A stretch of 40,181 nucleotides of DNA from positions 1 to 40,181 of the forward strand of contig JAYUVP010000093.1 of NCBI GenBank assembly GCA_043753995.1, in the 5' to 3' direction. The position numbers were made by a program. Origin of the DNA: Fibrobacterota bacterium (GTDB taxonomy: Bacteria; Fibrobacterota; Fibrobacteria; UBA11236). Shown piece by piece: positions 1 through 6,000 of this stretch; the first letter of the stretch is position 1, and each line of letters begins with the position of its first letter.

Positions 1-3000
1 CATGGCTCCCATTGCTATCGGTGAAGCCCGCATTATTTGCTCGATAGAAAATTCGAAGGTGGCCGATACCTTGGTGGTCGCGATCAAGAACGTTTCCAAT
101 CCTACAACGCCCCTCGACAGCATCAGGTTGGCCTTGGATTCGGTGACGCTATACACTGACAAACCCGGAACGCAATTAGAATTCTTCACCTTTCCGGCGA
201 CTCAGCAGTTGGAGGTGATGTGGAGTGTTTATCCTGCAATTGCCAAGGTCAGCGCGGTAGGATTGATTGAGCCACTGGTGCCGGGTAACGGATGGGTGAC
301 GGTCATCGGCATCGGTTCGCGCTTGGTGAAAGATTCGATTCTGGTACGGGTTGTCGATACCACAAGCAAGCCTATTCAATGGATGAAGGACACATTGTTG
401 GTCAAAATTCAAGAAGGTCAGAGCGCTCAAATGAGGCTTGCTGATTCCCTCGTGAATCCATCGGGGCAAGCAATCGAGTTCATTCAATCTGGCACCAACC
501 CAAAGTTTGTCTTGCAAGCTGGAGTCTTGACATTTGCTGCTGGAGTTAAAGATTCTGGCGATCATTATCAAAGCGTTAGCGCTCGCCAAGGCGGAAAGGT
601 TTCGTCGGTTGTCATTCATGTGCGAGTTGCGCCCACCTATGTGAAATTGAAACTCACGGCAACCAATGGGTCGATAACGGCCATACCCGACCAAGCCGCT
701 TATCGCTATGGCGAAAAAGTCACGTTGATACCGGCTCCAAAGCAGGGATACATTTTTAGCCAATGGTCTGAAGACGCTTCAGGTACTGCGAATCCCTTGG
801 AGCTGACCTTTATTGCCGACAAAGCAGTGACGGCGGTGTTTACACCAGGTTCGGTTGGGTCATGCACCGAAGTGCTAAATGGTGCCTCGCTCAATCAGGC
901 CATAGTCAAGGCTTATCAACCGGGTCAGAATGTGGTAACTCTCTGTCCAGCCCCGGGTGGCCTCTTCGATGGCAAAACCCTTCAGGTGCTCGGCAAAGTT
1001 CAAATTCTCATCAGCAAGTGATTTTTATGGAGACGCTCAGTATGTTTAATCGTTTCAATTCAAAGAGCCCGCGTCCGGTTATGTTCCGGGCCGTTTTCGT
1101 ATCTATGTCAGCGATTTTGTTGGTGCTTGGAATTGTGCCTTCCATGGCCCAGACTTCAACTGTACCCGCATCGGCCATTCAATTCTTTGATACCACCGGG
1201 GTAGTACCGACTTCGAAATTCGGTTGGCAAGGCAATGCAACCACGGGAAAGTTTTTCATTGAAACGCCGAATGATGGCGCTGGTATGTCCCTGCAAAACG
1301 GCACCATGACCTTGGATGGCACGGTCAAGGCAACCACCTTTGTGGGCAATGGCAGTGGTTTAACGGGCATTGTGGCCACAGGGGCAACGGCGGCTGAAGT
1401 TTCCACGAGGCTTAAGGGCGACACCTCCTTTCTTTCCACAGTGCGCGGTGACCGTGGGTTGCAGGGTTTGCAGGGAAGCCAAGGTTTGCAAGGGTCGCAG
1501 GGTATTCCTGGGGTAAAAGGCGACTCTGGTGCGCGAGGTGCGCAAGGGATACAAGGCCAGCAGGGATTGCAAGGAACTCAAGGGCTTACTGGAGCAAAGG
1601 GCGACAAGGGAGATCCAGGCTCACAGGGATTACAAGGGCTTCAAGGCGTGAAAGGCGACCCAGGTTCGCAGGGCATACAGGGATTGCAAGGTTTGCGCGG
1701 AGTGGGGCTGGATGGGAATCCGGTGACGGCGCCTGTAAGGCTAAATCAGGGCGCAACTACGGGTTATTTAACCAGTGGGGGACTAAATGTGGAGACGACG
1801 AATATTCATGGTATTCTGAGTACGGTTTATGGTACAACAGGCGGCACCTCCGCCGCATACTTCACACGAAATAGCGTTAATAATCAAATTCAACAAATCG
1901 CCGCTTTTGCAACAAGGTATGCAGATGGATCTGAATACGCGGCGCAATTTGTTGGAAACGTTAACATTAGTGGAGGCACTTGCACGGGATGTGCTTCGAC
2001 TGGTTCCGATCGGAATTTGAAAACGGACATTCAATCAATCGAGACACCAAAGGATAAAATCTCCCAAATTAATGGGGTTTCATTTAATTGGAGAAAACCC
2101 GCTCCGGGTCAAGAGCGAAAACAGTTTGGGGTTATAGCTCAGGATGTGCAAAAAGTGCTCCCCGAGGCCGTTTTTAAGCGGGATGATGGGTATTTTGCCG
2201 TTGATTATAATGCCATCATCGCCTTGTTAGTCGAAACAGTGAAGGACCAGCAAAGGCAAATTGATGAATTGAAAGTATTGGTGGGCGGAGGGAAGAAATA
2301 GGAGTTTTATGATTAACTGTGGGGTTTTTAACAAGCTGGTCATCCTGCAAAATATTGCCGACATAAAAAGCTTGGCAAAGCGGCTCTACGCGACATCGTG
2401 TGAGTGCAGCAATTCGCAAGGCGAATTAGGATTGAATTCAAAAAACTCGTTCCGGCTTAAAGTCAATAGGCAATGATGCATACAAATAAGATGAATCTAC
2501 AAGCATTTATAGACAAGCTAGCACCCTAGTCTTTCCCATAAAAACACCCATAGATTTTTTTGAGTACCTCAGTAGCGCTTTCCCTAAGTGCTGCTTGAGC
2601 GCTTTCTGAAATTTTGTCGATGGATGGATCCCAAGAAAAACTACAATCTGATTCCTCATCAAATCCATTGGGAATCTCCCCCCGCATAACATATTTGACA
2701 TTTTTAATGTGCGCCATATACTTGTATGCCCTAGGTTCATCTCCATTTGACAGTTCATACAAGAAGCGAGAGTCGGCGATTGAGTCATTATCAAAATCAA
2801 AAACACCTATTGAAGAATTGTTGAATGCTAAACCGGAAGAGTCCGAGTTTGAGAAATCCCGAATTTTCCACTCGATTTTTGGAGAACCTGAAGATTTAGT
2901 AATAAGCTGCTTTACTTCTATTTCATATTTTAAAGGTGTTCGCCCGTTGTACTTTTCTACTAGGGAGCATCCCAGCAAGAAATGCTTTCCTGATTTATCC

Positions 3001-6000
3001 ATCCAAGTGAATTGAAACAAGGGTGCGCCACTTGCACAACCTATGCTTCTAGGCAGGTCATTTACTGGGACTTCTTTGAAATTAAAATCTATGGACTTGG
3101 AATCGCAATTCGCGACCGATAGCGCCAATAAAACGAAACCATGAATCCTTTTCATAATTACCTCGTAGAAGCGAAATCGCCTTTTTCAAAGTCTCTAGTT
3201 GTATCGGTACCTAGTGGTTTTTGGGAGCCAGAGTGACCTGTGGGTAGCCGATAAGCAACAAAGTCACTTTTTGGAAACCAGGATTCACACACTTTTCCTT
3301 TGCCTGATTTACCTTGGTTGCCGCCAAGCAGAATATATCCAGGACGATTCTCACCATATGATTTTTGTCCTACAATCAAACCTACATGGCCCCCACCTGA
3401 GGCGTATTTAATAACCCCAACACATCCCCGCACAGGCGATTCAATTTTTTCACCCCAAATCTGCCATGACAAAGCCTTTGCCTCACCTGTTCCTGGAATA
3501 CCTGCTTGGAGCATCACCCAATTCATGAAGGCAGAGCACCACGCTGTCTCGTCGTTTGTCGCCTTTAACGATGTGGCTGAGTGGTATTCAATAATTCTTG
3601 GATTGTTGTCGTTACCCAGTATTTCTTGGGTACCAACTTCCTTTTCGGCGATGGCTAACCACTGGGGATCGTCAGAATTCTCAACCGGCTCGTTTTGGCT
3701 TTGTGGTGATGGCGCTTCTTTCACCCCATCCGTCTCCTTCTTCATCAAATCATCATAGAACTTGCACCCAAAACCCTTGACCGTCCGCTCACCCGGCTTC
3801 TTGCATTCCATATCACATGGCCCGGTGCTGGTACCGCAGGGGAAATCCACCGGATAGTTAAAGCTTTCCGTAAGTATCAAAAAGGTTGCCCGCCGATTTT
3901 CGGCGCGTAATTCGTTGCCTGCTACGTAGCGATTGAAGGAGCGGCAGCCCACATAGGGATTTCCTGCTACCGAGCGAATATGTCGATCGTGAATTTCAAC
4001 TTTTCGCTTTTCGCCTGTGATATAAAGTCGATAGAGTTCATTCAGGTTATTGTCTTGGGTAAACTCTAAATTCGGGTTTAAGCTTTTACCTTCTTTCTCG
4101 TTGACATAAACAATGAAATCCCGAATAGCCTTGCTTGTCTTCTCCCCGGAAACTCCGTCGACCTTGCCATTGAAAAACCCCATGCCTTGAAGCATGCTTT
4201 GTTGTTCCCAAACTCCCCAGCGCTCTGCATCGGCGATGCGACCCCACATACAATAGTCGCCTATCAAAAAGGCAAAGGCTGCTTGTGCGCGCCGAGCGCT
4301 CAGCTTGCCGGGATCTTCTTCATCCCGTTCGACATGCCCGAAAATCACAAAATGCGCCGAATCATTCTCCTTCCACCAAGTCTTGAGCGTGCTCTCAAAT
4401 TCGCGAAAAACCTTGAGGTATTGCGGGGCAATAAAACTTTTGTTTTGGGCAAAGTGAATCCCTGAAACCAAGGTATGCTTGAATTGGATTTCAGCGGTCT
4501 CGGTCACTTCGCGTTCGGTGCCATCGCCATTTGACCAATCGGCGGAGCAATGTTTGGCCTTAATAGCAAAAACGGCTTTGATTGGGTCACCGGATGGCAC
4601 AACCTCACTGGCTTTGGGTATGCACACCTTAGCCACGGCCCGCCCAGAGGCGTCGGCATTCGTATTGGTTATTGAATGGGCCACGGGTTTGAACCGGCCT
4701 TTTTCTCTAACCAGTAGTTCAAATTCGACGCGGGTTCGGAATTTTTCGGATTCAGGCACTTCGAATTCCGCAAAGACTTCCGGGTTGCTCTGAAATTGGG
4801 TTTTGTCGGCGACCCAACCAACCTTTTTAAGTCTGGCCTTGGGCTTATTCTCTACGGGGTCGGCAACCGGCTCCGGATTGTGCTCACCTAAACCAGCGGT
4901 AGCTTCGTCCCAGTCTTTGTCAGCGGCTTTTTGTTTGGCTTGTGCCGCGCTGCGTGAAGTGCCAGATCCTGACCGACCCCCACCGCCACCCAGGCCTGGT
5001 CCTGGTTTCGGCTGCGGTGTCGAAGTGGCATCGCTTGGGGCTTGAGGCTGGCCGAATTGGGCAGCTTGCCTTAGTAATTCCATGCCAGGTAAATTGAAAA
5101 GCTCGCTCATGTTTCTCAACGCGGGTTTGAGAGGAATCGTTATGGGTCAAAACATAATCTTTTCCTGGGGCAGAAGGTTGAGTTTAGAAGGCGCAGACCA
5201 TGCTGAATCGTGCCTATGTGATCTTCATCACCCTTTCTATTCAGCTTTCTATCAAGCGGAGCAATTCGCGGTTGAGTGCGCTGGCATGCGTCCAATTCAG
5301 GCCATGCGGCGCATCGGGAATCACGACATAGCGGCTGCCTTTCACCCGTTCATGGGTCAATTCGCCGGTGATGGCGATGGGGAGTATCCGGTCGGCATCG
5401 CCATGGACAACGAGAGTGGGCACGGTGATGGAGGCAAGGTCATGACGGAAATCTTCTTGCCAAGCGGAGACACAATCGTGCGTGGCTTTAGGTGAGGCGC
5501 CTACGGCGACCATCCAGCTCGCTTGCACGGCCTCTTTGCTGATGAGGGTGTCGCCGAGAACATCGACGTTGTAGAATTTTTTAAAAAAACCAGTGAGGAA
5601 GGCGGGACGGTCGGCAAGTATCGCCTTCTGGGTGTCTTCAAAATGGCTCGCGCTTTCGCCTGACGGATTGCCGGCGGCTTTAAGCAGGTAAGGTGGAATG
5701 GCGCTGATGAATGCGGCTTTGGCGACGCGTTCCGCTCCGAATTTTCCAAAATAACGGGCGACCTCGCCGCCCCCCATGGAAAAGCCAACGAGGGTGGCAT
5801 CGCGCAATTCGAGGCTGACTAGGAGCTTGTGTAAATCGGTCGTGAGCGTGTCGTAGTCATAGCCAAACGAGGGTTGACTGGACAGGCCGAAGCCACGGCG
5901 GTCATAGGTGATGACACGGTGACCCGCGGCGAGCAAGGCGGTCACTTGTTTCTCCCACGATTGCCCACTCAATGGCCAACCATGAATCAGAACGACGGGT

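Follow-up and report, generated by a model that had tools for sequence, protein, structure and literature searches.

Organization of the locus

The window analysed here is a 40,181-nucleotide stretch of contig JAYUVP010000093.1 (GCA_043753995.1) from a Fibrobacterota bacterium. On its minus strand lies g01166 (P0001), a putative effector gene followed after 2 bp by a small gene, P0002. Their features are as follows, with the basis of each assignment in brackets:

3158..5110, minus strand: putative effector gene g01166 (P0001), 650 aa, without signal peptide (sequence, profile searches)
4847..5110, minus strand: Pro/Gly-rich low-complexity leader, aa 1-88 of P0001 (sequence, alignment)
4493..4846, minus strand: Ig-like beta-sandwich, aa 89-206 of P0001 (structural model)
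4259..4480, minus strand: N-terminal half of the OmpA-C domain, aa 211-284 of P0001 (sequence, alignment, model)
4016..4258, minus strand: insert made of a helix and a three-helix PG_binding_1 domain, aa 285-365 of P0001 (Pfam, model)
3866..4015, minus strand: C-terminal half of the OmpA-C domain, aa 366-415, with GC..F and ENRR motifs (sequence, alignment, model)
3728..3865, minus strand: Cys-rich closing segment, aa 416-461, ending in CKFYD (alignment)
3668..3730, minus strand: swap point and linker (DNA comparison with the C269 paralog)
3161..3667, minus strand: TIGR02594 (NlpC/P60/CHAP-like) wall-amidase tip, GC 0.47 (profile score, alignment)
2526..3155, minus strand: candidate immunity gene P0002, 209 aa, predicted exported, GC 0.40 (profile, N-terminus)

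The central feature of P0001, described in an earlier note as an OmpA-C domain interrupted by a PG_binding_1 domain, is borne out by the alignment of both OmpA-C halves to one OmpA chain and by two structural models that agree on the split. The OmpA-C fold of the P0001 model matches 3td3 (Z 11.1, rmsd 4.4, 116 aligned residues, pLDDT 88.8) and the model of the insert matches the SleB N-domain (6tci, Z 9.2), while the Pfam match to PG_binding_1 lies under the cut-off in P0001 (E 2.4e-4) and over it in 3 of 5 paralogs. A putative diaminopimelate site, formed by G258-H259-x-E261 and L270-S-x-x-R274, falls in the N-terminal half of the OmpA-C domain. The closing C..YD motif is found in 34 of 129 full-module proteins, and Atlas matches of the module, with a score of 0.82, serve as leads only.

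The Ig-like domain is present in 29 of the 77 module genes examined. Its best sandwich match is the N-terminal domain of the Bacteroides type VI secretion system (T6SS) effector BtaeB (9jdh; Z 10.3, rmsd 2.9, 111 aligned), a likeness that is a lead only, being tied with complement C3 (Z 9.8); it found no support at the sequence level, and Foldseek with a longer P0001 model returned generic Ig folds.

Paralogs share the module and differ in their tips

The genome encodes six full-module proteins, on contigs C93, C269, C43, C200 and, twice, C342; a probable seventh gene is cut by the end of contig C1, where the Ig-like part alone is present. As the earlier note held, the six lack signal peptides, since none has a hydrophobic N-terminus or transmembrane segment. 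Among 129 homologs, 4 reach the hydrophobicity threshold and none is signal-peptide-like.

The contrast between conserved core and divergent tip that the same note drew for g01166 and g03487 was recovered: the two proteins are 91.2% identical over 455 aa, beyond which their tails of 189 and 197 aa share 35 identities (BLAST E 9.7). Aligned as DNA, g01166 and the C269 paralog share 87.8% identity over 1551 bp, a stretch that stops near window position 3730; a search for repeats there found none that was meaningful. Both tips belong to the wall-hydrolase families previously assigned, that of g01166 to TIGR02594 (114.7 bits, cut-off 70.55) and that of g03487 to BPSL0067 (59.9 bits, cut-off 27), the latter also matching Tae2 (6WIN, E 9.9e-7). 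The TIGR02594 tip has a putative catalytic pair, C525 and H575, that is invariant across 3 aligned rows, and it gave no match to PDB sequences. Together with the neighbouring genes described below, these sequence comparisons show that tips are exchanged at a constant boundary behind the module, that every tip moves with a neighbour gene of its own, and that PAAR proteins carry the same tip-plus-neighbour cassettes. Plasmid and phage searches returned no match, and a count of degenerate DNA motifs was uninformative.

One paralog was only partly as described. g02568 does lie in a vgrG-DUF2169-PAAR cassette, but it does not end in an S8 protease, because that domain spans aa 754-1038 of 1769. Likewise, an immunity-like next gene is found for g01166 but not for g02568, whose next gene is signal-less and effector-like and which has a PrcB-like small gene upstream.

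Candidate immunity genes vary with the tip

The N-terminus of P0002 is hydrophobic and includes a lipobox-like Cys, and the protein resembles M949_RS01915-like proteins (56.6 bits, below the cut-off of 60). On other carriers, too, this tip is followed by a homolog of P0002; a close-homolog search gave no match, and P0002 matches unnamed Atlas clusters at 0.95. Complex prediction for the tip with P0002 scored 0.00, a 'no answer' that we counted neither for nor against pairing. The tip and its neighbour were also seen on one single 1321-bp contig in one of two DNA runs.

Across the family, an abutting gene follows 44 of 46 long-tail genes. A hydrophobic N-terminus occurs in 29 of these 44 next genes, compared with 104 of 364 in a genome control, and is lacking in the other 15. 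Where next genes are homologous, so are the tips in 15 of 16 pairs, against an overall tip sharing of 38 in 1035 pairs. In genomes G000 and G248, moreover, two tip-plus-neighbour cassettes are swapped between module and PAAR carriers in both directions: the module tip of G000 is 44% identical over 160 aa to a PAAR tip of G248 (next genes 28% identical), and the module tip of G248 is 68% identical over 187 aa to a PAAR tip of G000 (next ankyrin genes 53% identical). This reciprocal swap of tip plus neighbour is the best and most direct evidence, and with the controls it upholds the earlier proposal of polymorphic tips, immunity-like neighbours and a T6SS link. The conserved N-terminal part and variable C-terminal tips of polymorphic toxins (Zhang 2012) are both present, and the adjacent candidate immunity gene varies with the tip, as judged by genomic criteria only. 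M949_RS01915-like proteins carry an annotation as surface-polysaccharide proteins; the results hint that their role is protection from TIGR02594 amidases.

Tip repertoire and tipless copies

The 46 long-tail genes fall into 28 tip clusters. Among the 42 complete long tails outside G000, Pfam names 17 as wall hydrolases, lipases or proteases, a further 12 carry HExxH (1.8% in shuffles) and 13 have neither; no nuclease, deaminase or ADP-ribosyltransferase was named in this set, and NCBIfam left nearly all of the unnamed tails without a match. More distantly, 10 of 119 homologs have a Pfam-named catalytic domain among the best 5 families per protein. Tails of at least 60 aa are present in 68 of 71 genes from other loci, many carriers have about 30 aa ahead of the module, and 39 of 116 proteins contain two to three module copies. 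Our own module profile gave 1132 matches at E<=1e-30, a total that overstates the family because 28 of the best 150 are plain PG_binding or OmpA repeats; the raw count was rejected as a measure of family size for this reason.

A substantial subset of the module genes, 27 of 77, is tipless. Of the 25 with an abutting gene, 24 precede a signal-less protein and 1 precedes an exported gene. These copies look like co-effectors or adaptors, since they head cassettes of separate signal-less genes. The genes beside them encode LysM-DUF3289 (C43, plus two exported paralogs), PLD and PT-TG (C342). The gene after tipless g04455 (PT-TG) has a PD-(D/E)xK-like motif spotted by eye, suggesting a cytoplasmic nuclease that wall tethering would leave unexplained.

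The module is linked to type VI secretion

Among 296 genomes of one phylum, all 56 that are module-positive encode TssC and none of the 181 TssC-negative genomes has the module, which is lacking from 59 of the 115 TssC-positive genomes; these tallies are not independent trials, because the genomes are related and the TssC-negative ones mostly smaller. With a second profile, no TssC-negative genome fell below E 1e-15. A relaxed search at E 1e-8 matched 260 of 296 genomes, was swamped by ordinary OmpA and served as a threshold check only. Extracellular contractile injection systems (eCIS) were considered as the carrier within the phylum and rejected: they occur in 23 of the 56 module-positive genomes, compared with 56 of 56 for TssC, and none of the 24 eCIS-only genomes has the module.

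Direct physical links are fewer. Hcp fusions comprise 5 genes from 2 genomes, PAAR is fused in 1 gene with further cases elsewhere, and L176 has a true T6SS VgrG fusion (TIGR03361, 297 against a cut-off of 186); fusions to Hcp (P0135, P0155) and VgrG (P0112), of the kind on which the earlier note drew, were reproduced in an independent search. A T6SS gene or fusion is visible at 10 of 66 loci, most copies being orphans. The same holds for 13 of 80 metagenome loci, which are mostly short; one of the 13 is doubtful. The contig bearing the T6SS core has no module gene. Outside the phylum, six OB-only gp5 spikes, scoring closer to eCIS than to T6SS VgrG, are fused to the module or lie directly ahead of it, so the marker may not be T6SS-only.

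As a T6SS effector-class marker, then, the module is confined to T6SS-encoding genomes within one phylum and has some members fused to or beside Hcp, VgrG or PAAR. The reading in the earlier note is supported in part, with amendments for the tipless copies, the eCIS-like spikes and the loading role. In little-studied bacteria of soil and sediment, the conserved, predicted wall-binding core seems to be the mark of a family of injected toxins not described before.

A predicted tether to the prey cell wall

The Asp and Arg residues by which OmpA-C domains bind diaminopimelate (passages of PMC5974059) are retained in nearly all module domains: by motif and alignment, the acid is present in 221 of 235 distinct domains (Asp in 193, Glu in 28) and the Arg in 234. 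In P0001 the acid is a Glu, and the Arg is kept. Given this retention, the likely role of the module is to hold injected toxins on the peptidoglycan of the prey, and because module proteins lack an export signal, the site would meet peptidoglycan only after delivery.

We favour, at a probability of roughly 55%, a reading of P0001 as a T6SS cargo effector with a conserved chassis and an exchangeable toxic tip, in which the module acts as a prey-wall tether. Either a fused Hcp, VgrG or PAAR or an N-terminal part, for example the Ig-like domain, would attach the signal-less protein to the tube or spike of the T6SS, which would fire it into the periplasm of a rival. Once there, the enzyme would be kept at the envelope by its OmpA-C pocket, bound to diaminopimelate stems, and by the PG_binding_1 insert, bound to the wall, and the TIGR02594 tip would cut peptide stems; exported P0002 would protect kin, and tipless copies would provide the tether in trans to the product of the adjacent gene. 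Both TIGR02594 and DUF3289 are reported as T6SS effector domains in passages of PMC13055248, PMC13340143 and PMC12135965. A broader version, in which the module is a post-delivery wall tether common to T6SS and eCIS, in cis and in trans, and no secretion tag, is tentative; if correct, it would give access to the effector arsenals of Fibrobacterota, myxobacteria and Acidobacteriota.

Somewhat less probable again, though not exclusive of a tether, is that the module itself is a loading domain, a role shown for MIX, RIX, PIX and WHIX, that binds Hcp, VgrG or PAAR, with tipless copies as secreted adaptors and wall binding vestigial or secondary. Such a role would fit the many orphan carriers without a fused tube or spike part, those with about 30 aa before the module, and the tipless genes, of which 24 of the 25 with an abutting gene precede a signal-less protein; the MIX co-effector VP1388 (passages of 10.1101/2021.07.29.453783) and tipless WHIX genes (passages of PMC12135965) offer precedents. 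However, the module persists in fusions to Hcp, VgrG, PAAR and gp5, which themselves supply the loading, and is repeated in 39 of 116 proteins; its Arg is almost invariant. Its standing as a marker does not show that it does the loading, because it is kept in such fusions with its peptidoglycan-binding residues retained.

We consider it improbable that the module is itself a toxin, sequestering peptidoglycan stems or precursors in prey, with the tips as second warheads. Toxic OmpA domains have been proposed in PVC-linked proteins (passages of Zhang 2012, PMC3482391), the periplasmic T6SS toxin VP1390 is described with an OmpA_C-like domain in the passages cited, and tipless and tandem-module forms occur, but the neighbour gene tracks the tip and not the module, and no module-specific immunity is seen, since only 1 of 25 tipless copies has an exported gene behind it. 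Least probable is self-directed wall remodelling or anchoring (TagL/TagP-like anchors, or autolysins opening the wall for the injection machine) with no weapon involved. In its favour, the fold resembles that of T6SS anchors, TagL among them (5m38, Z 9.0-9.4), wall hydrolases are frequent among the tips, and in many distant members only Ig-like or repeated modules are seen. Against it, the six paralogs have no signal peptide or transmembrane segment and none of the 129 homologs is signal-peptide-like, the T6SS core contig is without a module, and the polymorphic tips include lipases and proteases, have cognate neighbours and are shared with PAAR effectors.

Relation to known effector markers

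A close parallel is WHIX. According to passages of PMC12135965, it too is a conserved domain restricted to T6SS; its polymorphic tips degrade the wall (pesticin, GH19, SLT, NlpC/P60), the immunity proteins encoded beside it are exported, fusion to VgrG is rare, and genes without a tip occur ahead of separate toxin genes. WHIX is described there as a bipartite WHxxxH cavity domain of Proteobacteria, whereas the module has an OmpA-C fold with a PG_binding_1 insert, tips that extend to lipases and proteases, and records labelled Fibrobacterota and Myxococcota; P0001 contains no WH dipeptide and was not assigned to WHIX. Sufficiency for secretion is reported for WHIX in the same passages. MIX, FIX, RIX and PIX, as summarised in passages of PMC12135965, are also N-terminal markers of polymorphic T6SS effectors, and MIX further acts as a co-effector, as we read the tipless copies. 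The module differs from them in its fold, built of two known peptidoglycan-binding domains, and its named fused tips are envelope-acting or proteases whereas FIX carries cytoplasmic toxins. No MIX, FIX, RIX or PIX family was named among the Pfam/NCBIfam matches, libraries that may not hold those models.

VP1388-VP1390 (passages of 10.1101/2021.07.29.453783) resembles the module, by description, in pairing a periplasm-acting T6SS toxin that has an OmpA_C-like domain with a marker in trans; in that pair it is the toxin that carries the OmpA-like domain, MIX serving as co-effector, with no insert or swappable tips reported in those passages. Tox-OmpA of PVC/eCIS (passages of Zhang 2012, PMC3482391) also involves OmpA domains of proteins that lack a signal peptide and are linked to contractile injection systems, but always at the extreme C-terminus, whereas the module is N-terminal or central, split and then followed by catalytic tips; membership was rejected on the same 68 of 71 genes with tails of at least 60 aa. 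With the OmpA-C anchors (A. baumannii OmpA 3td3, TagL 5m38, Pal, MotB) the module shares its fold (Z 9-11) and Asp/Arg positions. These anchors are exported or membrane-bound and uninterrupted; the module proteins lack an export signal, and their OmpA-C fold is broken by about 80 aa of insert. The module does not fit a wall anchor of the TagL/TagP/TssL type, there being no membrane or export signal and no module in the T6SS core cluster. The two swapped tips themselves belong with the Tae2 (6WIN)/BPSL0067 and TIGR02594 T6SS amidases, but are fused behind a chassis.

The split OmpA-C/PG_binding_1 architecture was not found in the openly accessible literature searched, and supplements of the marker and polymorphic-toxin papers may list it; by term search, OmpA is absent from the main text of PMC12135965, PMC13340143, PMC8213781, PMC13323088, 10.1101/2021.10.19.465003 and 10.64898/2026.09.28.754971. 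Each of the earlier T6SS markers MIX, FIX, RIX, PIX and WHIX revealed new toxin families. The module does so in phyla outside their reach: its tips form 28 clusters or more, a good number of them without a name, and come with candidate immunity genes. Its known ligand pocket sets it apart from other markers and makes action of a marker at the wall after delivery, a question raised for WHIX, testable by one point mutation. Members are currently mislabelled 'OmpA family' or 'peptidoglycan-binding protein'.

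Domain architecture of the effector gene

The effector gene and its immediate neighbor in the window are:

3158-5110 (-), effector gene P0001, 650 aa, no export signal, no transmembrane segment
2526-3155 (-), downstream gene P0002, 209 aa, 2-bp gap after P0001, hydrophobic N-terminus

A structure model of P0001 aa 86-462, built from 26 sequences (pLDDT 88.8), contains an Ig-like sandwich at aa 89-206 and, at aa 205-416, an OmpA-C fold (versus 3td3, Z 11.1, rmsd 4.4, 116 aligned) that is interrupted by a PG_binding_1 insert (aa 292-364; versus 6tci, Z 9.2). A separate model of the C43 paralog has the same arrangement, and in sequence comparison a single OmpA chain aligns with both OmpA halves of this module, confirming the split domain proposed in the earlier note. 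The exchangeable C-terminus, or tip (aa 482-650), scores above the TIGR02594 cut-off and retains Cys525 and His575. GC content is 0.51 for the chassis (the conserved part before the swap point), 0.47 for the tip and 0.40 for P0002, compared with 0.54 genome-wide. Close homologs of P0001 are labeled Fibrobacteria.

The Ig-like domain resembles the effector BtaeB, whose structure was solved on a VgrG spike (9jdh, 9jg8), but this match is tied with unrelated sandwiches and the modeled likeness is only a lead. Convergent with the effector pair, 862-2301 (+) and 2-1021 (+) encode a collagen-repeat protein with a Peptidase_S74 chaperone domain and an InlB-B-repeat protein; 8925-9511 (-) holds a small gene pair that resembles, by sequence, a Phd/YefM-ParE/RelE toxin-antitoxin module.

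Paralogs in the same genome

Six proteins of this genome carry the full module, and a contig end truncates what is probably a seventh (C1:1-632 (-), ending right past the Ig-like domain; Ig profile E 1.3e-25). The C269 paralog is 91.2% identical to P0001 over 455 aa; of the codon differences, 92 are synonymous and 41 non-synonymous. Near window position 3730 the DNA similarity ends, and BLAST finds no relation between the two tails. The C269 tip is of the BPSL0067 family (Tae2 match, E 9.9e-7). The near-identity followed by divergence and the two tip families reported previously thus both hold. The C200 paralog does lie in a vgrG-DUF2169-PAAR cassette, as claimed, but its S8 domain is central (aa 754-1038 of 1769) and does not end the protein.

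Two copies are tipless. That on C43 is followed by a LysM-DUF3289 protein and two exported paralogs (mutually 44% identical); DUF3289 is described as a verified T6SS toxin in Aeromonas in passages of PMC12135965. The other (C342:5003-5968) is followed by a PT-TG protein gene. The lack of a recognizable tip in two copies had been raised as an objection. Since tipless copies commonly head cassettes of signal-less proteins, their putative partners, the objection is answered. A 611-aa PT-TG protein is conserved behind a tipless module in two families (L004:3171-5006 (-), L050:8292-10127 (+)), with a PD-(D/E)xK-like motif, seen by eye, in its C-terminal part and no clear immunity gene after it.

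This genome also carries a T6SS core, in which TssC and Hcp were found by family search and their neighbors named by inspection; there are also three VgrG and one eCIS-like cluster (C170:336-20868), whose gp27 and gp5 spike genes are split and whose contig lacks the full module. On C200, the PAAR effector and the S8 module gene are separated by a candidate poly-immunity stretch (L003:8425-12094) made up of an ankyrin gene, a lipoprotein gene, two P0002-like orphans and a gene for a PrcB_C lipoprotein; its counterpart cassette in genome G248 has PAAR-TIGR02594 and one P0002-like gene. Weakly matching Dentilisin PrcB-like lipoproteins beside S8-bearing effectors (L003:8425-8973, L066:4306-4860) are candidate protease inhibitors or immunity proteins.

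The module marks a wider, apparently undescribed family

All 12 close homologs of P0001 diverge past the module. Wall-hydrolase tips with a name occur in nine (SLT in three, BPSL0067 in two, and one each with GH19, pesticin, TIGR02594, and glucosaminidase plus TIGR02594), a weak CHAP match in one and unnamed tips in two. A profile from the six paralogs, run against 1.84 billion proteins, matched 1132 of them at E<=1e-30; 28 of its 150 best matches were plain PG_binding or OmpA repeats. Family members come from sources such as Myxococcaceae, Polyangiaceae, Kofleriaceae and Blastocatellia. Considering the best five families per protein, at least 10 of 119 new module proteins carry a Pfam-named catalytic domain (Het-C 3, S8 4, PLD, PAD, GH25) and at least 4 have an Hcp, VgrG or PAAR fusion, in agreement with the Hcp and VgrG fusions noted before. 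Two or three module copies occur in 39 of 116 module proteins. Only 4 of 129 full-module proteins reached the N-terminal hydrophobicity threshold, versus 25 of 31 partial matches (mostly PG-repeat proteins). The N-termini of P0027, P0047 and P0121 are unnamed domains that give the impression, short of a family match, of contractile-system tube or DNA-circularisation proteins.

In the way it works the module resembles WHIX, the nearest precedent, as well as the MIX co-effector module. It is not WHIX, whose motif and fold it lacks, nor Tox-OmpA (which is C-terminal) or a TagL-type anchor (which is exported). Literature searches and term finds in the main text of selected open papers yielded no description of the split architecture. 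We judge the module to be a real marker of polymorphic, very probably injected effectors, apparently previously undescribed.

Tips and neighboring genes co-vary

The 77 module genes comprised 71 from other loci and 6 of this genome; 46 had a complete long tail, 27 a complete short one, and 4 ran off the locus end. The 175-aa cut was set post hoc, and two 151-152-aa amidase-like tips were hand-assigned to the long class. The next gene abuts in 44/46 of the long class versus 551/1130 controls, and is N-terminally hydrophobic in 29/44 (control, 104/364; short class, 1/25). The tip is shared by 15 of 16 pairs with homologous neighbors versus 38 of 1035 pairs overall, although pairs are not independent. 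Neighbor and tip therefore co-vary, in line with the immunity-like next genes described earlier.

Of 42 long tails outside this genome, 17 were named (SLT 4, pesticin 2, Het-C 3, PLD 2, Tle1, S8, calpain, Hydrolase_2, Amidase_2, CHAP), 12 had HExxH, 2 GxSxG and 11 nothing. Short tails often consist of one Ig-like domain, and their genes commonly come first in cassettes of signal-less proteins, several ending with exported paralog arrays. Genomes G281 and G284 (L079-L080, L083-L089) have up to nine module genes each, mostly tipless, in cassettes ending in paralogous exported-gene arrays. A large unnamed HExxH tip family (L043, L054, L058, L060, L065, L095, L098) has three neighbor families, one exported and two signal-less. 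Every Het-C tip in L044, L049 and L051 is followed by DUF7738, a candidate Het-C immunity protein.

Linkage to T6SS and a likely one to eCIS

The most direct evidence for a T6SS link is the reciprocal tip exchange between module and PAAR carriers that sequence comparison indicates. The P0001 tip recurs on PAAR in G248 (44% over 160 aa, with 28% identity between the next genes), and a G248 module tip recurs on PAAR in the genome studied here (68% over 187 aa, with 53% identity between the next ankyrin genes). In a third genome, a TIGR02594-like tip and P0002 homolog are attached to yet another N-terminus. One P0002 homolog, in G280, comes without such a tip, and two more are orphans in the vgrG cassette of our genome.

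Of 296 genomes of the phylum, 56 carried the module (cut-off E<=1e-15), 115 carried TssC and 57 carried an eCIS tube gene. TssC was present in every one of the 56 module-positive genomes (55/55 without the unpublished G254) and the eCIS tube in 23 of them, while the module was found in 0 of 181 TssC-negative genomes, including 0 of 24 with eCIS only; related genomes do not count as independent, and those lacking TssC are for the most part smaller. The proposed T6SS linkage is thereby supported. A T6SS gene or fusion was visible at 10 of 66 loci (60 hand-picked regions among 150 listed of 198 matches, plus 7 other loci, minus 1 duplicate), so most copies are orphans.

Among the best 80 of 165 metagenome loci, 13 had a T6SS-query match (one doubtful). 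L176 is a true VgrG-module-Het-C fusion. OB-only spikes are fused to the module in L137, L140, P0211 and P0216 and lie directly upstream in L136 and L146; for these six, NF033848 and the eCIS gp5 of our genome outscore T6SS VgrG. Because the margins are modest and the spikes were judged apart from their host genomes, use of the module by both T6SS and eCIS is graded only as likely.

A proposed mechanism

That module proteins are injected polymorphic effectors at all is highly probable. As to how they act, we favor, at roughly 55%, a model in which a contractile machine would deliver the signal-less effector into prey, the module's two binding domains would tether it to the prey wall, the tip would do the damage and the exported neighbor would protect kin. 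Delivery and tethering are inferred from three features. First, passages of PMC5974059 give Asp271 and Arg286 as the diaminopimelate-binding residues of A. baumannii OmpA; among 235 distinct module domains, the motif position matching the first is Asp in 193 and Glu in 28, and that matching the second is Arg in 234; as the protein is signal-less, the predicted site would be usable only once in a periplasm. Second, the module is retained even in fusions behind Hcp, VgrG, PAAR and gp5, partners that already take care of loading. Third, the fused tips with a name fall among wall hydrolases, lipases and proteases. Counting against tethering are a nuclease-like partner (motif by eye) behind one tipless copy, the signal-less neighbors of several HExxH tips, and Glu replacing Asp in P0001 itself. 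Orphan copies with only 30 aa ahead of the module, and the existence of tipless copies, would suit a loading domain, a rather unlikely role that is compatible with tethering.

At five loci, a module with a 30-aa leader is immediately preceded by an unnamed 190-300-aa gene, similar-looking by eye and possibly encoding a dedicated chaperone:

L048:6035-6943, unnamed gene directly upstream of module
L056:13736-14533, same
L076:8803-9642, same
L121:9093-9980, same
L139:9339-9905, same
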